A stretch of DNA of 64,000 nucleotides from Candidatus Heimdallarchaeota archaeon (GCA_019057815.1 JAHLWR010000001.1:1-64000), one strand, 5' to 3'; positions 52,333-64,000 are shown, counted from the first letter of the stretch. Program-made: numbers and translations. The notes: generated by a model not told the origin, from the sequence alone.

Positions 52333-52713
52333 ATGGAATTTTATGGAACCGCAGATTGGAAAACAGAAAAACATGTACCAGTTATTGAAGTACCGGAAAC
52401 AATTGAAAAAGGAGCTTTAATTTCTGTTAAAGTATCAGTAGGAAAAGAAATAGCTCACCCAAACACTACAATACATCATATCCGATGGATAAAACTGCTG
52501 TTTTGGCCAGAAGAAGAGAAATATCCTTATGAAATTGGAAAAATAGAATTCAGTTCTCACGGAGAATCTATCAAAGGTGCTGATACAAGTACAGTATATA
52601 CAGAACCTTTTGGTAAATTCCGTTTCAAAACAGAAAAATCTGGAAAACTAATAGCTACAAGCTCATGTAACATCCACGGATTATGGAAATCTGAAAAAGA
52701 AATTAAGGTTTGA
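52333..52713 (+). CDS. sor: Superoxide reductase (neelaredoxin / class II SORL)
   Basis: EKHVP, HPNT..HHI.WI and CNIHGLW motifs. Confidence 0.93.
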   Translation: MEFYGTADWKTEKHVPVIEVPETIEKGALISVKVSVGKEIAHPNTTIHHIRWIKLLFWPEEEKYPYEIGKIEFSSHGESIKGADTSTVYTEPFGKFRFKTEKSGKLIATSSCNIHGLWKSEKEIKV

Positions 52714-52768: not shown

Positions 52769-54111
52769 ATGAACTACTCCTACCTAAAGGTAGGCGTTTC
52801 TTGATTCATTGAAAAGACTTGTCCACTGATGATTGCCGAAGCAGTAAGAGTGAACAGGGGTCTGTTCTCCACAAGTAAAGAGGTATGTCCCTTACGCCTC
52901 TTCAAAATGTTTATTGAAGCGTTATAGTCACGGTCTAGCTCTAAGCCACAATAAGGACAAGAGTGTGTCCTATCATTTAATGTCTTGGGGACTATCTCTC
53001 CACATCTGGAACATTCTTGAGTAGTGCCTCTAGGAGGAACTTTAACTAGTTCTTTATCAGCGTTTACAGCTTTATAAGCTAAATAGTTGAAGAATATTCC
53101 CCACGAAGCGTCGAGAATGTTACGATGGAGTGTGCGTGACCGCTTGTGTTTCTTATTTCCGTTCTGTGTGAGTCCTTTAATATTCAAGTTTTCCACACAG
53201 ATAATATCATAATTATCTACATAAAAGTTTGAGACTTTATGTAAGAAGTCTTTACGCTGGTCAACAGCTTTAGTGTAGAGTTTAGCCAACTGATATTTGG
53301 CTTTTAACCAATTCTTTGAACCTTGCTTTTTACGACTAAGAGATTTGTGCTTATTTTTAAGTTTCTTTAATTGTCTTTCTATGTTTTTAGGATTCTCTAT
53401 CTCTCGTCCATCCGAATCCACTGCGTAAGAATTTATCCCTACATCTATCCCTACGCTTTTAGAGGTTTTAGGAAGAGATATAGGAGCGTTCTCTACTTGT
53501 ATATTAGCGAACCATCTACCTGTTTGAGAACGTTTGAGTATTATGCCCTTGACTTTGTTTGTACGTATACGATTGTTTAATCCTCTACAATTGATAGTAC
53601 CTATCTTAGAAAAGGTTAGTTTATTTTTGTTTTCATCTATCTTGAATCCACTCTGGTTATAGTTGATAGTCTTGTACCATCCTTTTCCTTTGAAACGTAA
53701 GTGACCGATCTTATGTCCATTCTTCTTTAATTGTGCTAGACTTTTGATATTTGTCCATAGAGTGTAATTGACCATCTGTAAAACTTTAGAATATACCCCT
53801 TTCAATTCAGGCATAGAACTGTTTTTTAGCCCCACGATAAAAGATTGAGTTTTGATTTGTGTGAGTTTTTCTCCCTTCTCTCACGCTTTTTTGCGCTCTT
53901 CTAATAGCTTATTATAGAGTTTTCTGCAAATATCCAACTGTTCAATGAGTGTGGCTTGTTGCTGTTTATTAGGGTACAGTTGCACTTTGTAGGTTAACAT
54001 CAGTTCATTTCCTTATTTCCTTAGTACTTTTTTCACTATAAAAAGACGAGTATATGCTAAAGTGATGTTTCTATCGCATTCATCCCCACCTAAAGTTAGG
54101 GGATTTCTGCT
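52769..54111 (-). mobile_element. IS200/IS605-family TnpB-only element, copy 2
   Basis: Left end (agcagaaatcccctaactttaggtggggatgaatgc) and right end (gtaggagtagttcat) homologous to copy 1. Confidence 0.85.
52780..54000 (-). pseudogene. tnpB: tnpB with a nonsense mutation at codon 40
   Basis: ATG at 54000 aligns with the copy 1 start; CGA (Arg40) in copy 1 is TGA here (53883-53881); the rest of the frame is open. Confidence 0.88.
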
Positions 54112-54606: not shown

Positions 54607-55173
54607 TCAGAAAAGGAAAGTATCACTTAATTCGATAAAAGGAGTAAACAATAGATGTATTTTGTCTCTTAATAGATATAAAATTATAGAACCTATAATT
54701 CCAGCTATTGATCCCCCCAAAATATCCAAGAAATAGTGAGCTTTTATAATTATCCGTCCATAACCTACTAGAATAGCCCAAATAAGGATTATCCAGCCTA
54801 TCTTTGGGAAAAGAAGCATTATCATAGTAGCTGAACAAGCCATTCTACCCGCATGACCACTTGGAAAACTCCAAATATCTAGTTTACTCACATATTTACT
54901 CTGTACTTCTTTGGATGGTCTTTTCCTTCTAATGATTCGTTTAAGTATCTGAATGACCAAACCAACAACAGCTATAGCGGTTATTTGTAACAAATTTTCA
55001 AATCTAGGGAATATTATGTCAAAGATATAACATATTAAACTGAAAGCTAGCCAAGGTAAGAAATCTCCTGATTTTGCAAAAAAACCTGCAAATTTATGAT
55101 TCATGAGGTCTGTATCAACAATACGCTGAGTAAGAGTCTGATCCCATGTTCCTAACTTGCTCAACGTTGACAT
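54607..55173 (-). CDS. PAP2 family membrane phosphatase
   Basis: K....R.RP, SFPSGH and GR....AHY..D motifs. Confidence 0.92.
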   Translation of the reverse strand: MSTLSKLGTWDQTLTQRIVDTDLMNHKFAGFFAKSGDFLPWLAFSLICYIFDIIFPRFENLLQITAIAVVGLVIQILKRIIRRKRPSKEVQSKYVSKLDIWSFPSGHAGRMACSATMIMLLFPKIGWIILIWAILVGYGRIIIKAHYFLDILGGSIAGIIGSIILYLLRDKIHLLFTPFIELSDTFLF

Positions 55174-55775: not shown

Positions 55776-56534
55776 TTATATTTTTCTACCCACAGCTGTA
55801 AAAATAGGAATAAAAATCATCCTTGTGTTTTTCTTTATCATTTCCTTTTCCGTTCTTATAATTTCAGTAAATTCCTTTTCAGATATTTGTGAAGTTTCTA
55901 ACACTCTCCGCCATTCTTCTTCTATATTTTCAGTTAAGTGTTTCTTACTCCAAGTCTGAGCCACTACAGATACTGAAGTTTCTAAGTTTGCTGACTGGAA
56001 TAAATCCAACAATTGTCTACCCATAAACGGATTTGCACCTTGCTTTTTAAGACTCTCAACATGATACTTACCTAAGCTTAGTTCAGGATTTTCTATCCAT
56101 CCGCCATAATCAGGTTCTGCTAAAGCGATAACATATCCTCCTTTTTTACAAACTCTTACCATTTCATGAAGAACATCACTGGGTTTTGGGAGCCATAAGA
56201 AGAAATAATGGGAGAACACTATATCATAAGAAGCAGGCTTAATTTTCATAGACTTCGCATTTTCTACTAAAAAATCTACATTTTCAACCATAATTTTGGC
56301 TTTTTCAATCATCAATGGATCAGAATCTATTGCAGTAATTTTTGCAGAACATTTTTTTCTAATTTCTTTGGTTACAACTCCAGTGCCACATCCTACTTCT
56401 AGTATTCTCTTTGCGTTTAGCAATCCTATCTGGCGATAGATGTTGTTTCTGAAACCTTTTGTCCATTGAGCTTGACGCTTGAACTGTCTATCAAAAACAT
56501 CATATTCATTGTCTTTAAGATCTTTACTACTCAT
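55776..56534 (-). CDS. Class I SAM-dependent methyltransferase
   Basis: ILEVGCGTG, EMVRVCKKGG.V and EPDYGG motifs; 37 bp downstream of the radical SAM gene. Confidence 0.9.
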   Translation of the reverse strand: MSSKDLKDNEYDVFDRQFKRQAQWTKGFRNNIYRQIGLLNAKRILEVGCGTGVVTKEIRKKCSAKITAIDSDPLMIEKAKIMVENVDFLVENAKSMKIKPASYDIVFSHYFFLWLPKPSDVLHEMVRVCKKGGYVIALAEPDYGGWIENPELSLGKYHVESLKKQGANPFMGRQLLDLFQSANLETSVSVVAQTWSKKHLTENIEEEWRRVLETSQISEKEFTEIIRTEKEMIKKNTRMIFIPIFTAVGRKI

Positions 56535-56571
56535 TTAGTTCACCCAAAAAGAGAGGATGGTGTTTTAGTTT

Positions 56572-57876
56572 CTATGAAAAGGCGTTTTTACATACGTTTC
56601 CAGGGGTTATATAATTGAGAGGACAACCTCCTCCACACAACTCTCGTTCAGGACATTCAGTACATTCTTGAGGAAGATACTTCATGTTACGAAGATGTTT
56701 TGCTAGCTTATGGTTCCAGATTTTCTTCCACCTCGTTGTTAGAATGTTACCTAGGGGTTCGAAGTAACTCTGACATGGGATAACCATTCCATCTGGTTCA
56801 ATAGCCATTGCTATATGAGCAGCTGAACACTGTTTCATTCCCAAGTTCTTCTCTATTGGATTGAAATCACAATATCTTGTTGGAGAGTACCAGAGGAAAC
56901 CCATTTTAAGCTCTTCAGCCTTGTTCATCACAAGATTTAGAGTATCATCCAGTTGTTCGATAGAGAGAGATAAAGCTGGATTTTTCCCACCACCAGATTT
57001 TATTATGGCGTTTGCAGCAAATTTTTCTATTCCAAGTGAAGCTAAAAAGGAAATTGTTTCTTCAACTCCTTCAATATTATGTGGTGTTAAAGTTGTATTT
57101 GTCATAATATAGACAGGTGTTGGTATAACATTCTTTATCCCTTCAACGGTTTCCTTCCAAGCTCCTTCTACTCCCGATAATTTATCATGGGTTTTTTCAT
57201 CATAACTCTCTATTGTTACTTGAAAATGATCAATTCCTGCTGTTACTAGACTTTCAACTAGTTTTTTATCTTTCAGCTTTCTTCCATTAGTGATTATTCC
57301 AGTAACTATCCCTAAATCTTCAGCATGTTCTACTAGCTCTGTTAAATCATCTCGAAGTGTTGGTTCTCCTCCTGTAAAAGTCACATGAGGTATACCTATC
57401 TCCCATAATCTATCTAGAACTCTTTTCCACTCTTCTGTACTTAACTCTTTGATTTCTCTATTAGTTTCAACATAGCATTTTGTGCACTTGTTATTACATC
57501 TGTAAGTTAAAGCTAAATCTACTCGAAGTGGAGCTGAAAAAGGTGCTTCTTGTAAAGGTGAAATATCTTGCGAGAGATCTTGAACTGGGTCTATATCTGG
57601 TTCAGCCATTAACTCTTGTATTGATGTTCTTAGGTCATCCAAATCGTCAATAAGTTGCTGTTCTGTAACTTTGTATTTCTTCTTCAATTCTCTAATTATT
57701 TCATCGTCACCTTTTCCTTCTATTATTCTAGAGACGATTTCCGTTGCTGTCTTATTAAGATAGAAGATTCTTGTAGCATTAATTATAAGAATACCTTCAC
57801 CTTTTTTCTCTTTTCTGAGATGCATTCTACCAAAAGTTTCTGTATCTCGAAAATGATAAATTTTTGTTGACTTCAT
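56572..57876 (-). CDS. Radical SAM/SPASM enzyme with N-terminal PqqD/RRE-like domain
   Basis: YLNKTATEI...EI...L...Y.V....L..D (PqqD-like); CNNKCTKC; FTGGEP; SPASM C..IEPDG.V.PC...C..C.....CGGGC; true start is the ATG at 57876 overlapping the upstream TAA. Confidence 0.92.
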   Translation of the reverse strand: MKSTKIYHFRDTETFGRMHLRKEKKGEGILIINATRIFYLNKTATEIVSRIIEGKGDDEIIRELKKKYKVTEQQLIDDLDDLRTSIQELMAEPDIDPVQDLSQDISPLQEAPFSAPLRVDLALTYRCNNKCTKCYVETNREIKELSTEEWKRVLDRLWEIGIPHVTFTGGEPTLRDDLTELVEHAEDLGIVTGIITNGRKLKDKKLVESLVTAGIDHFQVTIESYDEKTHDKLSGVEGAWKETVEGIKNVIPTPVYIMTNTTLTPHNIEGVEETISFLASLGIEKFAANAIIKSGGGKNPALSLSIEQLDDTLNLVMNKAEELKMGFLWYSPTRYCDFNPIEKNLGMKQCSAAHIAMAIEPDGMVIPCQSYFEPLGNILTTRWKKIWNHKLAKHLRNMKYLPQECTECPERELCGGGCPLNYITPGNVCKNAFS

Positions 57877-59651
57877 TATCTTCCACCTCCGGCACACGCG
57901 CATGCACAAGCGCAAGCACAAGCACATCCTCCTCCACCGCCACCTGACCGTCCTCCAGATGTTCTTGTTGGCGCTGGCCTTGTTACTCTCTGAATTGATC
58001 GATGTAGTGACCTAGGTTTTCGAATTAATCCCGAACTAAAACTTGACACAGGGGCTATTGGTCTGATATTTCCATGGGGTTTAATTCTTCTAAATAACCT
58101 TGTGCTTGTTGGTATATAGCTAGTATTTCCTGAATAGTAGTAATAATTTACAATGTACCAGTTAGGATAGTAATAACTGCCATAATACCGATCGAAATTT
58201 TCTTCATAACCTTCGTCTACCATTACCCATAAGAACGCATCTTTCAGTTCTGGTTTAGACTTACTTAAATCTTGCCAAGATTTTTCTACAATATCTTCAT
58301 AATAATTTTTTGTTCTTCTAAGCGAGAATCCTTTCATTTTTTTGGATACATTTTTAATATGTGCCAGCAATGCTGCTTCCAGTTCCTTTTGATGTACAGG
58401 TTCGGTTGCTATACTTCCTGACATTTCTCCTTTACTAATTTTCACCGTTTCTTTATTTCTTCGTTCAATCCCTTTGATTATTTGCGTTTGACTAATGGTC
58501 ATTGTTTTTACTTTCTTGTTAACTTGTAACCTAAATGGAGATTTTTGTTTGATTGAAATATAACCCTTTTCCATCATTTCAAATAGAATAAGAGTTGCTA
58601 CTTGAGCCAACGGTCTCTCCATTACAATAGCTGCTTCTGAAGGAGTAAGGTTTTCTCTTACTCCACCTCCAAGGGAGTTAATTGATGGAGGAAGATATTT
58701 TCTAGCTTTTCTTCTTTTATTCCATAAAGAGAAAATGACTATAAAAATTATTATTGCACCAAGTGCAATTACGTACCTTTTTTCATATAATGTTAGTTTC
58801 CAAAATACTGAATGTACTTTTACATATGTATCAGGAAAAGCTATTCCAACAAAATATCCTTCATCAGGATATCCATCTATCAGGCTAAACTCTATATATG
58901 ACCCTAATGTAGTGAAATCATATACATTGAAATCACCAGAAGTTGTAAGTCTTTCTTCAACAACAGATAAGTCAATATATTCCCCAGGAAGAAAGATTCG
59001 TACAGTTCGATTTGTTGTTCCGCTCGTAAAAGAAGAGCTAAACCATGTTTGATCAAATAATAGAGATGCATATCCTTCATTCTCATCTGGAAAAATCATT
59101 GCAGGATTATGACAATATACTACTAAAACAGCTGTATGTTCAGGTAAAATAGCGTGCTCTTCTAGATATATTTCAGGACCGATTTCAATATATGTACTCT
59201 TTTGAATGTTAAATATTTCAATGCCATCTATCCATGCACGAACTGAATTTATCTTATAGTTATGATTGGGAATACCAATATCCACTATGTCGATTGGATC
59301 CGCTCCAACTAGATTCTTGAAGACAATTGTGTAGTAAATATCTATGGAACCATCTTTTAAAACAGTAATATTAGTAGTCATTGTAGGGACTTCAAAATTG
59401 TATGATTGAACAGTTGATTCATTGCTTTCAGGAATTGTAATTTCAGCAACAGCTGAACTACAAAGTAAAATTCCTATAACTAAAAGAACAAAACTTAGTG
59501 AAACTACTTTTGGAAACCTTATTTTAGACACCTTTCTTACATTTATCTTACTGCTTTTTAAATTTTCTAGCAACGTCCATCTTCTGTACTTCACTTGATT
59601 ATCTATTATATCAATAGCGAAAACAAGATTTGTTCTAATGTTAGAGTACAT
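57876..59651 (-). CDS. DUF2207-like single-pass membrane protein with C-terminal G6-(CA)6-GGGR tail
   Basis: Signal peptide; ITVLKDGSIDI N-terminal domain; TM followed by KRRKARK; LTPSEAA..ATLIL..M..KGYI; Gly/Cys-Ala tail; true start is probably downstream of 59651. Confidence 0.85.
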   Translation of the reverse strand: MYSNIRTNLVFAIDIIDNQVKYRRWTLLENLKSSKINVRKVSKIRFPKVVSLSFVLLVIGILLCSSAVAEITIPESNESTVQSYNFEVPTMTTNITVLKDGSIDIYYTIVFKNLVGADPIDIVDIGIPNHNYKINSVRAWIDGIEIFNIQKSTYIEIGPEIYLEEHAILPEHTAVLVVYCHNPAMIFPDENEGYASLLFDQTWFSSSFTSGTTNRTVRIFLPGEYIDLSVVEERLTTSGDFNVYDFTTLGSYIEFSLIDGYPDEGYFVGIAFPDTYVKVHSVFWKLTLYEKRYVIALGAIIIFIVIFSLWNKRRKARKYLPPSINSLGGGVRENLTPSEAAIVMERPLAQVATLILFEMMEKGYISIKQKSPFRLQVNKKVKTMTISQTQIIKGIERRNKETVKISKGEMSGSIATEPVHQKELEAALLAHIKNVSKKMKGFSLRRTKNYYEDIVEKSWQDLSKSKPELKDAFLWVMVDEGYEENFDRYYGSYYYPNWYIVNYYYYSGNTSYIPTSTRLFRRIKPHGNIRPIAPVSSFSSGLIRKPRSLHRSIQRVTRPAPTRTSGGRSGGGGGGCACACACACACAGGGR

Positions 59652-59696: not shown

Positions 59697-60617
59697 CTAA
59701 ATTTTTGTTTTAATTGTCCTTTCTCCTTTAATCATCTTACTTTTTCTTTTTTGCTTTGGTTTAGGTTTAGGTTTTATACCGAAAACTATCCGTTCTTTTG
59801 ATTTATCTATTGTAATAGTTACTTTTAGACCGCTTTTTTTTGTTCTTTTATCCCATTTGTATTTCAGAAGGTCTAAATATTCATCCTCAGTCATTTTGTT
59901 GAAATCAGAAATCTGTTCTAACGCTTTTAAATCTTTAAACCTATCAAAAATGATTTCATATTCATTATCCTTTTTCATTATTACTCCCTTCCAACCAGTT
60001 ACATTTGATCCTATTACTGCTATATATGCTGCTATTTTGAAGGAACCTTCTAGAAAACCAAATAACTGATCTACTTTCTCATTGAACTCATCAGAATCAT
60101 CAAAAAACGCCTTAGCTTTCTGTTTTCCTTGTTCTTTCTTGATTTTAGTATAAATTTTATTAATTGTTTTTATCTTCTCATAATTTTGAAGATGTTCTTT
60201 CATGTTTATATCTAAACGAGGAATTTCAGTTCTTTTTCTTTGTGTTTCTTCATAAATTGGGATAGTCATTGTATTTATACTTTCAATAACAAGCCTTTGA
60301 GCTTCTCCTTTTGGTTGAACCAATGTCCATGTAATATCACTTGTTTCCGTTGGAGAAATACGCGTTGATGAATGCATGCGTATTTTTCCGTTTCGAAGTT
60401 TTTTAACAAATCTGGGATAAACTCTAAATCTAGTAGTGCTTTGTTTAAAATTAGAAATCAACATACTCAAGTATGCTAGAATAACGCCCATTATCCCCTC
60501 ACCTCCAACTATTTCCTCTAGAGCCCAAGTTTTGTTATTATTAATTACTGATTCTAAATTAATTAGAAGATAATTAATCATTTCTTGTTCTTCTTCATTT
60601 ACATTTACATATTGCAT
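59697..60617 (-). CDS. Hypothetical protein
   Basis: 306-aa ORF with a basic C-terminus; no motif recognised. Confidence 0.7.
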   Translation of the reverse strand: MQYVNVNEEEQEMINYLLINLESVINNNKTWALEEIVGGEGIMGVILAYLSMLISNFKQSTTRFRVYPRFVKKLRNGKIRMHSSTRISPTETSDITWTLVQPKGEAQRLVIESINTMTIPIYEETQRKRTEIPRLDINMKEHLQNYEKIKTINKIYTKIKKEQGKQKAKAFFDDSDEFNEKVDQLFGFLEGSFKIAAYIAVIGSNVTGWKGVIMKKDNEYEIIFDRFKDLKALEQISDFNKMTEDEYLDLLKYKWDKRTKKSGLKVTITIDKSKERIVFGIKPKPKPKQKRKSKMIKGERTIKTKI

Positions 60618-60715: not shown

Positions 60716-61432
60716 TCAATAGAAAAGATGTTCTTTTTCCTTCTTCTCTTTTCTTATCCTTATTCTTCTTCGTCTCTTATTGTTCCCTTTATCCTCTTTT
60801 TTAGGTTTTCTAGGAGGAACGAATGTTAATTTCTTATTGAACTGATTTGATATCTCTTCCAGTTTGCTATAAATCAAAAACTTCATTTTAGTACTTCTTT
60901 CCATCTCGTAAATCATTGATAGTTTCCCTAGCGTTTCTTCATCAGCATAAAAAGGTAAAATACTCAAAGCCATTTGTCTTGTAAATAAAGCTGAATCATT
61001 GGTTAAAACTGAATACAGAAGTGAAATTATCTTATTCTTATCACACTTTTTTCGTTCATGCAAATGCTTTAAAGCTATAGAACGCAAAATGTCAATTTTA
61101 TCTTTCTCTACAGCAAGCTCTAGAATTTCTTCAACTTTCGAAGAATCATATGTTGACATAGCTTCAATAATCGCTAATCTAACTGAATGTTCCTTTTCAA
61201 AAAGGTATAATTCAGCTAATTTGTCTGCAATCTCTTCGCCTTTATTTTTATTCAATGCAAGAATTGCTTGTATCCTGATTTTTTCATAAAGGTCATTTTT
61301 CGCTAAGTTTAGAAGAAAATTTTTAACTTCTTCTTTTTCAGAATAATTACCAAAATCTAGAATAATTGTTAGTTTTTCTCTATCAGTTGATTTCTTGAAT
61401 TTCTCGAATTTAGTACCCAAATCACTATTCAT
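60716..61432 (-). CDS. HEAT-repeat protein with basic tail
   Basis: Repeated D...IR..A...L units. Confidence 0.8.
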   Translation of the reverse strand: MNSDLGTKFEKFKKSTDREKLTIILDFGNYSEKEEVKNFLLNLAKNDLYEKIRIQAILALNKNKGEEIADKLAELYLFEKEHSVRLAIIEAMSTYDSSKVEEILELAVEKDKIDILRSIALKHLHERKKCDKNKIISLLYSVLTNDSALFTRQMALSILPFYADEETLGKLSMIYEMERSTKMKFLIYSKLEEISNQFNKKLTFVPPRKPKKEDKGNNKRRRRIRIRKEKKEKEHLFY

Positions 61433-63138: not shown

Positions 63139-64000
63139 TCATTTGTATTTATCTAAATCCTCAGCCTTATCATCTAAACGTTTTAAAGAGCTGTGAAGAC
63201 TAAAGAAATCTTCTTCTTTATCACGATTTGAGGATTCCTCTCCATTATCTTCCTCGTATTCAAATGATTCATCATATTCATCAAATTCTTCTTCTCCTTC
63301 TGATATTATTTCCATTTCACCCTCTAAAAATGAAGAATCAAATTCAACGAGCTTATCAGAATGTAGGTTGTCTCCAACTATCTTTTCTAATTCTTTAAGT
63401 GCTAAAATTGAAGCATCTATATCAATGTCATAAGTATTGCAATAAGATAGAATAGCTAATACTGGTTGTTGAAATGCTGTACCTTCCGTTAGCAAGAAAT
63501 TTAGAGGACCCTTGATGGTTTGTTGATCTTTGAATGTTCTTTGTGTTCCATACAATTCTGTGTACAGTGGAGTTGGAATTAGACTAGTCCATTCTTCATC
63601 TGTTGTTTTTCTAATATCTTCTCTTAAACCTCCGATGACAATATAGCGCTTAGCTTTCCAAGACAATATTTCTTCAGACAACCACTTCCAAAACGCGTCA
63701 GGAAGTGCATTATAACCTACAACAGGGACAGGTAAACGAGACGCAACAAGTACAATTTTATTTTTATTTTTTGTTGAGTTAACATCTAGTGTATATATTG
63801 TAATAGGGGTTTCTAAATTACCTTGATGATACCAACTTATTGAACCCCAAAATCCGATTGAAGTCACAGGTAAGGTTTCGATAAGATGGTTTAAAACTAC
63901 ATTACCTACAGAACCATAACCTGAGAATCCAAGAATTACAGTAGTTTCTTTATCAATATAATCTGTATTAATACTGAACTGATTAAGGAATTGAATTGTG
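63139..64000 (-). CDS. PAC2 family proteasome assembly chaperone with acidic tail (5' partial)
   Basis: Frame is open to the window edge: TVILGFSGYGSVG..V..HLIE; IVIGGL; acidic C-terminus. Confidence 0.82.
   Translation of the reverse strand, partial: TIQFLNQFSINTDYIDKETTVILGFSGYGSVGNVVLNHLIETLPVTSIGFWGSISWYHQGNLETPITIYTLDVNSTKNKNKIVLVASRLPVPVVGYNALPDAFWKWLSEEILSWKAKRYIVIGGLREDIRKTTDEEWTSLIPTPLYTELYGTQRTFKDQQTIKGPLNFLLTEGTAFQQPVLAILSYCNTYDIDIDASILALKELEKIVGDNLHSDKLVEFDSSFLEGEMEIISEGEEEFDEYDESFEYEEDNGEESSNRDKEEDFFSLHSSLKRLDDKAEDLDKYK

Follow-up and report, generated by a model that had tools for sequence, protein, structure and literature searches.

A membrane protein with a conserved (Cys-Ala)n-GGGR tail and its radical SAM/SPASM partner: a putative protein-modification cassette of archaea and bacteria

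Results

Organization of the locus

Three genes lie in a row on the minus strand of a 64,000-nt stretch from Candidatus Heimdallarchaeota archaeon (GCA_019057815.1, JAHLWR010000001.1:1-64000), the whole of which is called the window here (Table 1). The first gene encodes a membrane protein, P0001, that ends in a Cys-Ala repeat followed by GGGR. The second encodes P0002, in which a RiPP (peptide synthesized by the ribosome and modified post-translationally) recognition element (RRE) is combined with a radical S-adenosylmethionine (SAM) core and a SPASM domain, and the third encodes a class I SAM methyltransferase, P0003. A preliminary description, made from the sequence of the window alone, had listed the TAATG overlap of the first two genes, the PqqD/RRE-radical SAM-SPASM gene and the class I methyltransferase gene downstream, all of which are borne out by the coordinates and by Pfam matches. 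The overlap suggests, as far as gene spacing can tell, that the tail gene and the radical SAM (rSAM) gene are translationally coupled. The stop of the P0002 gene and the start of the P0003 gene are separated by 37 nt on the same strand. In the explanation that we find best overall, and that we regard as probable, the three genes form one operon. The genome to which the window belongs carries exactly one tail gene and one P0002 ortholog.

Table 1. Features of the cassette and its upstream neighbour. Positions are those of the whole 64,000-nt stretch; P0001 residues are numbered from the 591-codon open reading frame (ORF). AF2, AlphaFold2; pLDDT, predicted local distance difference test.
Feature	Position	Strand	Basis or remark
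P0001 gene, tail-bearing membrane protein	57876..59651	-	591 codons; homologues 28-53% identity; AF2 pLDDT 84.4
Extracellular beta-sandwich domain, P0001 residues 86-273 (predicted)	58833..59396	-	AF2 model; Foldseek
Single transmembrane helix, P0001 residues 292-316, then KRRKARK on the cytoplasmic side (predicted)	58704..58778	-	Sequence and AF2 model
Folded cytoplasmic domain, P0001 residues 337-557, winged-helix-like unit and helical bundle (predicted)	57981..58643	-	Modelled alone, pLDDT 91.7
Disordered C-terminal extension TRTSGGRS-G6-(CA)6-GGGR, P0001 residues 560-591	57879..57974	-	pLDDT <50 from residue 570; disorder from about 560
(Cys-Ala)6 repeat, P0001 residues 576-587, proposed core/substrate	57891..57926	-	Columns C578-A587 invariant in alignment A1
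Invariant C-terminal GGGR	57879..57890	-	Alignment A1, Asgard pattern hits
TAATG stop/start overlap P0001/P0002	57874..57878	-	TAA 57876-57878 shares its last A with ATG 57874-57876
P0002 gene, RRE + radical SAM + SPASM enzyme, 434 aa	56572..57876	-	Pfam domains, ortholog alignment
PqqD-like RiPP recognition element, P0002 residues 34-82	57631..57777	-	PF05402 31.2 bits, cut-off 23.4
Radical SAM core, P0002 residues 123-278, CX3CX2C C127/C131/C134	57043..57510	-	Radical_SAM 95.8 bits
SPASM, seven Cys C336/C350/C368/C405/C408/C414/C418 including CX2CX5CX3C	56623..56871	-	PF13186 39.9 bits, cut-off 21.5
P0003 gene, class I SAM methyltransferase, 252 aa	55776..56534	-	Methyltransf_11, 76.6 bits
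306-aa ORF upstream, no Pfam family	59697..60617	-	Syntenic only in close Heimdall relatives (L035 55%, L008 54% identity)

The Cys-Ala tail

The tail reads as it had been described, SGGRS-G6-(CA)6-GGGR and then TAA, in the ORF at 57876-59651. A conserved VTRPAP motif stands just before the extension (P559 is at least 90% conserved in A1), and the six CA units are written with mixed codons (tgt/tgc and gct/gca/gcg/gcc). A search with the whole protein returned eight relatives, and the five full-length ones, down to 28% identity, all end in (CA)n-GGGR. A tail-less profile (A3), made from the cytoplasmic domain without the tail, was then searched against 1.84 billion representatives and matched 715 cluster representatives, 294 of them at E<=1e-30. 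Among the best 100 matches of at least 500 aa, 90 end in at least two CA units and GGGR, 8 in variant runs of CA or CV, and 2 have no tail; one of these two is cut right before the position of the tail. The Cys-Ala tail defines the P0001 family.

Scanning DNA for (CA)3GGGR followed by a stop gave at least 120 genome loci in many phyla. The last ten residues are spelled with different DNA in 119 of 120 loci among the matches listed, and the tail codons vary among Asgard relatives as well. Conservation acts on the peptide, not on the DNA. The pattern is far beyond chance, since it occurs in 50 of 301 Asgard genomes and the reversed-pattern control in none. Microsatellite slippage or an assembly artefact was considered as the origin of the repeat and rejected because of the mixed codons and because the peptide is kept through heavy synonymous change.

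Several forms of the tail exist. The bacterial consensus is (CA)4-G-(CA)3-GGGR, a second type reads (CA)2-3-G-(CA)4-GGGR and has a different upstream motif, and the uninterrupted (CA)5-6 form seen in the window is found in Heimdall and Methanomassiliicoccales. Of 113 sampled tails, 83 have a P-x-P-type motif and 16 more have the alternative motif of the second type. Among the sampled loci, the same core peptide extends from Chloroflexota to Asgard archaea. In some Chloroflexota, tail-bearing paralogues occur as a tandem pair; in one such locus (L101) both end in a Cys-Ala tail, and in another (L063) the second copy runs off the locus.

The GGG codons of GGGR (ggaggtgga) constitute a strong Shine-Dalgarno-like sequence, 6-14 nt before the ATG of the rSAM gene, so the end of the tail doubles as a ribosome-binding site in this operon. 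GGAGG(N)GG is kept at the same place in Heimdall relatives. Ribosome binding is not the only role of GGGR, because GGGR is also conserved where the tail and rSAM genes are unlinked.

Coupling of the tail and the rSAM gene

In four independent homologue contexts the tail gene is followed by an RRE-rSAM-SPASM gene, with a methyltransferase gene close by. The order tail gene, rSAM, methyltransferase is found in Heimdall, Hodarchaeota, Methanomassiliicoccales, Thermoplasmatota, Chloroflexota, Planctomycetota, Acidobacteriota, Fermentibacterota and others. An rSAM gene was scored as adjacent if an ortholog of 40-75% identity started between -400 and +700 nt from the tail stop on the same strand, and a locus was judged if it had at least 1.5 kb of downstream flank. 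Among the matches listed, the rSAM gene lies directly downstream of the tail gene in 75 of the 97 judgeable loci, a P0002 ortholog is present in every one of the 11 loci whose flanks are large on both sides, and a methyltransferase ortholog is visible in 48 of the 68 loci that have room for it. The second tail type has the rSAM gene upstream and the methyltransferase gene directly downstream. Five loci have ample flanks and no rSAM gene, and each of the five bacterial genomes concerned carries an ortholog elsewhere (309-454 bits).

Co-occurrence in the 301 Asgard genomes is similarly tight. A high-scoring rSAM is present in 49 of the 50 tail-bearing genomes, the sole exception being an 89%-complete metagenome-assembled genome (MAG) with its tail at a contig end. 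By family, a high-scoring rSAM is found in 26 of 28 genomes of f1, 11 of 21 of f5, 19 of 19 of f17 and 4 of 68 of f14, and also in f28 and f30. The corresponding counts for the tail pattern are 24 of 28 genomes of f1, the same 11 of 21 of f5, 7 of 19 of f17 and 5 of 68 of f14, and this pattern too occurs in f28 and f30. The preliminary description had allowed that homologous tails might occur independently of this rSAM clade; the adjacency counts, the five unlinked loci and the Asgard genomes point the other way. Tail subtypes group together on the rSAM tree (5 label changes vs 19.1 after shuffling), which is weak support for coupling as relatedness alone could produce it.

A separate substrate would be an obvious alternative. 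No short precursor-peptide ORF had been seen near the cassette in the window, and the comparison agrees: no conserved short or Cys-rich precursor ORF was found in 120 loci among the matches listed, and the small ORFs that recur near the cassette are off-frame shadows of conserved genes. In the window, the TAATG overlap leaves no room for a separate precursor between the tail and rSAM genes. The only conserved Cys-bearing neighbour of the rSAM gene is the tail protein. The lineages examined have neither a protease nor an exporter as a conserved part of the cassette.

The two enzymes

P0002 has all the sequence features of the peptide maturase class, namely an RRE, the CX3CX2C motif, a seven-Cys SPASM domain and a linked ribosomal candidate substrate, although a membrane protein of about 550 aa is an unusual form for such a precursor. 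In an alignment of 43 orthologs (A2), all radical SAM and SPASM cysteines are conserved, with C127, C131 and C134 invariant; CX3CX2C is present in 78 of 79 orthologs. The N-terminal block that holds the recognition element is conserved as well, and a family-invariant H19-L20-R21 stands just N-terminal of the element (A2). P0002 reaches none of the curated NCBIfam rSAM families. It scores 151.7 bits against the PqqE model TIGR02109 (cut-off 381), 111.3 against the SkfB model TIGR04403 (cut-off 300), 95 against the StsB model NF045574 (cut-off 625), 74.1 against the AlbA model NF012164 (cut-off 850), 67.2 against TIGR04340 (rSAM_ACGX) of the ACGX system (cut-off 400) and 31.6 against the CrpC family TIGR04463 (rSAM_vs_C_rich; cut-off 525). 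There are no pqq genes near P0002. The nearest solved structures by sequence are SkfB (6efn, 3.6e-26), PqqE (6c8v, 5.1e-24) and SuiB (5v1q, 2.6e-14). By these sequence comparisons P0002 represents a distinct, unnamed clade in the RRE-rSAM-SPASM class.

P0003 also matches Methyltransf_25 (69.1 bits) and reaches no specific NCBIfam equivalog. A complex prediction for P0002 (A2, with three 4Fe-4S clusters and SAM) and P0001 residues 525-591 (A1) gave a score of 0.02 and a mark of 0.32, which speaks neither for nor against binding.

Many bacterial cassettes contain a second, paralogous rSAM-like gene of about 385 aa (L010, L012, L013, L020 and 43 others, for example L066:2121-3278), which sits between the active rSAM and methyltransferase genes. 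In 41 of these 47 the product is without the CX3CX2C motif and the SPASM cysteines but keeps an RRE-like N-terminus. It may be a non-catalytic recognition or chaperone subunit. The Heimdall operon of the window does not contain this gene.

The tail-bearing membrane protein

The preliminary description gave P0001 591 aa. The 591 codons are present, but translation probably begins at an in-frame GTG (59531). The protein would then have 551 aa, in line with the homologues (546-569 aa), and would start with a normal signal peptide. The AF2 model, built from an alignment of 53 homologues, has a signal/anchor helix at residues 46-65 and bears out the topology read earlier from the sequence: signal peptide, ectodomain, one transmembrane helix with KRRKARK, and a cytoplasmic C-terminal part.

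The best solved matches of the ectodomain in Foldseek are 8pn9_E (2.8e-8), LTA4H (1.9e-7) and 6ezn_A (4e-7); the predicted fold resembles the N-domains of ribophorin I/OST1 and of M1 aminopeptidases. For the cytoplasmic domain, the best solved match is GOLPH3/Vps74 (3kn1_A, Z 6.6; 2zih_A, Z 5.6; the next best is 3.1), and no other solved fold stood out in a wide structural search. This likeness between a model and moderately scoring structures is treated here as a lead only. The ribophorin-I-like and GOLPH3/Vps74-like domains are probably old and widespread folds rather than a link to eukaryotes; the tail-protein family is mainly bacterial, so there is no case for a eukaryote-specific link.

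P0001 matched no Pfam or NCBIfam model, with no Pfam hit even at E<=1. In the ESM Atlas, clusters of DUF2207/DUF2207_C match the cytoplasmic domain at TM-scores of 0.51-0.58. Weak hits to DUF2207_C (PF20990) occur in 4 of 53 family members and to the DUF2207 N-domain (PF09972) in 2 of 53, and PF09972 has no match anywhere in the genome of the window. P0001 is not a DUF2207 member by sequence, but may be a remote structural relative. Of the comparison with DUF2207 made in the preliminary description, a probable remote fold similarity is left and Pfam membership is not. DUF2207 proteins (PF09972/PF20990) resemble P0001 in their overall plan of signal peptide, beta ectodomain, transmembrane helix, cytoplasmic helical domain and Gly-rich C-terminus, with the domains in the same order as in the P0001 model. 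In contrast, the (CA)n-GGGR end and the rSAM partner are the P0001 family's own.

Discussion

Comparison of these loci may provide some clues regarding the function of the cassette. Work on RRE-bearing radical SAM/SPASM enzymes has dealt almost wholly with their part in producing small peptide natural products. Here, we consider it quite probable that the substrate of the rSAM enzyme is the Cys-Ala tail of P0001. Every computable test, that is, the coupling, the co-occurrence and the lack of an alternative precursor, supports this interpretation, which the preliminary description had proposed; the modification itself we infer. Being predicted cytoplasmic and disordered, the tail would be reachable by a cytoplasmic enzyme. 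The operon would then probably yield a post-translationally modified membrane protein rather than a free peptide. We lean slightly towards a tail that stays attached to this protein, as no protease or exporter is conserved and the rest of the protein is strongly conserved. A broader claim, to which we would give about even chances, is that of a widespread and ancient post-translational modification in which rSAM and methyltransferase act on the cytoplasmic (Cys-Ala)n-GGGR tail of a conserved membrane protein that stays intact, and make of this tail a new structure, crosslinked or cofactor-like. As for the chemistry, thioether formation is our tentative choice, somewhat short of an even chance. 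It is favoured by analogy, being usual for RRE-bearing rSAM/SPASM enzymes on Cys-rich cores, with CrpC (PMC13692751) and StsB (PMC10288494) as precedents.

The following course of events can be envisaged. The PqqD-like recognition element of P0002 would dock on the C-terminal region of P0001, with a candidate contact in the conserved VT-x-P-x-P segment, which precedes the first Cys by about 18 residues. The flexible Gly linker and the Cys-Ala repeat could then be threaded into the active site of P0002, where a 5'-deoxyadenosyl radical and two SPASM auxiliary clusters would modify the cysteines one after another. The most likely products would be thioether bridges from Cys sulfur to a carbon of neighbouring Ala or Gly, so that a floppy, thiol-rich tail may become a rigid, thiol-free ladder. 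Subsequently, P0003 would add at least one methyl group, with a remaining thiol, the C-terminal carboxylate, the backbone or a side chain as candidate sites.

Several observations weigh against this interpretation. First, Asgard family f17 has an rSAM-methyltransferase pair without an adjacent tail gene (L174, G016:C1:31500-41500). The tail genes that were found in f17 lie on contigs other than that of the pair, often no more than 260 nt from the contig end, and one genome has two copies. In four of five f17 genomes that lack the pattern, a search with the family profile likewise gave no tail protein, although these MAGs are 80-89% complete and the result is no proof of absence. Second, family f11 has, in 53 of its 76 genomes, a related rSAM clade (33-37% identity to P0002) but no (CA)n-GGGR tail, and no obvious substrate was seen beside the rSAM gene in this sister clade (L168, G080:C1:753500-762700). 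Third, P0002 reaches no curated model of a thioether synthase, which means that family membership gives no guide to its chemistry, and every statement made here on the reaction is an inference. Finally, runs of Cys-X-Cys are classic ligands of metals or Fe-S clusters, and the tail could function unmodified.

The last point leads to an unlikely alternative, in which the tail is an unmodified metal-binding, Fe-S-binding or redox site, the substrate of the rSAM and the methyltransferase is something else (a cofactor, for example, or a small molecule), and the membrane protein is only a partner, scaffold or regulator. Alternating Cys-X-Cys is a well-known metal-thiolate motif, and all carriers seen are anaerobes, where free thiols survive. 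Several of the closest NCBIfam scores of P0002 are with cofactor enzymes, PqqE, NirJ and AhbD, but these models stay far below their cut-offs, as the PqqE figures given above illustrate, and no other cofactor-pathway gene is conserved in the cassette. Moreover, the fused PqqD-type element passes its Pfam cut-off, and such elements are typical of ribosomal-peptide enzymes. The CrpA operon, up-regulated on pyrite, was suspected by its authors of a role in metal binding (PMC13692751). Against this, strict co-occurrence with the tail is explained most simply if the tail is the substrate.

An alternative of similarly low probability keeps the tail as the substrate and changes the reaction: conversion of Cys to formylglycine or dehydroalanine, alternating D/L epimerization, C-methylation or carbon-carbon crosslinks. 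SPASM enzymes are said to include anSME, which converts Cys to formylglycine, and rSAM epimerases reportedly act at alternating positions. The poor fit of P0002 to thioether-synthase models and the conservation of a dedicated methyltransferase are also consistent with such a reaction. However, the best relative of P0002 with a solved structure, by sequence, is the thioether synthase SkfB, and thioether formation is usual among characterized RRE-bearing rSAM/SPASM enzymes with a Cys-rich substrate (PMC10288494, PMC13692751).

Less probable still is a true RiPP with a giant leader, whose tail would be modified and cleaved to release a small (CA)n peptide or metallophore, the membrane protein being only precursor and anchor. 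The succession of motif, Gly linker, core and C-terminus does resemble a leader-core layout, and large precursors with C-terminal cores, such as those of the borosins, are said to exist; but no conserved protease or exporter accompanies the cassette in the lineages examined, the rest of the protein is conserved and predicted to be folded (invariant residues in both domains, pLDDT >90), as expected if it has its own function, and a single gene copy means that a 551-aa membrane protein would be made for each peptide. A C-terminal sorting signal was rejected as the main reading, as the tail is too weakly hydrophobic to span a membrane and its placement is cytoplasmic both in the model and by the positive-inside rule.

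The modification of the tail proposed here has partial parallels in known systems. QhpD, an rSAM/SPASM enzyme, is said to form Cys thioethers in QhpC, the gamma subunit of quinohemoprotein amine dehydrogenase, which stays a functional subunit. Unlike P0001, QhpC is reportedly small, soluble and periplasmic, has Cys-to-Asp/Glu links and carries a quinone cofactor; its system has no repeat tail, membrane protein or methyltransferase. In the ACGX-repeat system, an rSAM/SPASM enzyme is said to be paired with repetitive Ala/Cys/Gly substrates. These are reportedly short peptides, in contrast to the membrane protein here, and P0002 scores far below the cut-off of the corresponding family. SkfB, PqqE and SuiB share with P0002 the radical SAM core and the SPASM/twitch domain, and SkfB and SuiB also the N-terminal RRE. 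Their substrates are short peptides, unlike the one proposed for P0002, and P0002 is far below the cut-off of every family.

Among the closest analogues, besides QhpD/QhpC, is CrpC, which puts thioethers on the 29-kDa protein CrpA of Methanococcus voltae, at motifs such as ACAGM and CAVD (PMC13692751, 2026). It is likewise an archaeal RRE, radical SAM and SPASM enzyme encoded beside a full-size Cys-rich protein, which it modifies instead of a short peptide, and the CrpA motifs resemble the CACAG of the present tail. However, CrpC belongs to another enzyme family than P0002, as the scores show, and CrpA is soluble, with ten 17-residue repeats and an N-terminal recognition region (PMC13692751). 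P0001, in contrast, is by prediction integral to the membrane and has one C-terminal (CA)n-GGGR tail, which is invariant; its cassette includes a methyltransferase. Another of the closest analogues is StsB, which bridges a CxCxC core to GxGxG (PMC10288494). StsB/StsA and BlaB/BlaA combine an alternating-Cys core, Gly acceptors, a hairpin ladder of sactionines and an rSAM/SPASM enzyme with an RRE; unlike P0001, the StsA precursor is short and free, its GxGxG acceptors form a block apart from the core, and the RRE is supplied by a protein of its own (PMC10288494). The present tail has 5-7 Cys with Ala between them and only GGG after.

An open-access literature search found no description of this tail or cassette, nor is there an NCBIfam model for it; membrane substrates and Chloroflexota are both absent from the text of Precord 2023. 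That an rSAM/SPASM maturase can act on a full-size Cys-rich protein encoded next to it is, as a general principle, already published for QhpD and, in 2026, for CrpC. If the proposed reading is true, an integral membrane protein would be added to the substrates of radical SAM/SPASM enzymes, the reaction on an alternating Cys-Ala string would be new, and RiPP-type chemistry would be seen as a housekeeping protein modification rather than a means of making natural products. The broad spread in anaerobes likewise points to a cellular rather than an antibiotic role. To our knowledge, modification of whole proteins is known from few cases, namely QhpC, methyl-coenzyme M reductase and CrpA (2026), and the present tail is among the most strongly conserved core sequences. 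The system is experimentally tractable, consisting of one enzyme, a methyltransferase and a tail some 30 residues long, and a cultured carrier, Ornatilinea apprima (locus L066), exists.

Neighbouring genes

The 306-aa ORF upstream of the tail gene was considered as a fourth member of the cassette and rejected because it is kept only in close Heimdall relatives. A tRNA scan found none near the cassette, and a promoter and terminator scan gave fewer matches than shuffled sequence, its consensus sites being bacterial and the host an archaeon. On the other side of the cassette lie a gene for a PAP2 phosphatase-family membrane protein (54607-55173, minus strand) and a 351-aa ORF (52780-53835, minus strand) whose product, judged by eye, resembles TnpB/IS200-IS605 OrfB-type proteins, with a zinc ribbon of the form CxxC...CxxC at the C-terminal end. 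Upstream are genes for a HEAT-repeat protein (60716-61432, minus strand) and a PAC2-family protein (63139-63999, minus strand); the PAP2, HEAT-repeat and PAC2 genes are not conserved with the cassette. A desulfoferrodoxin/superoxide reductase gene (52333-52713, plus strand; 110 bits) is also present in the window, and a Desulfoferrodox gene is found near the cassette in the Heimdall relative L008 as well, which fits an oxygen-sensitive lifestyle.

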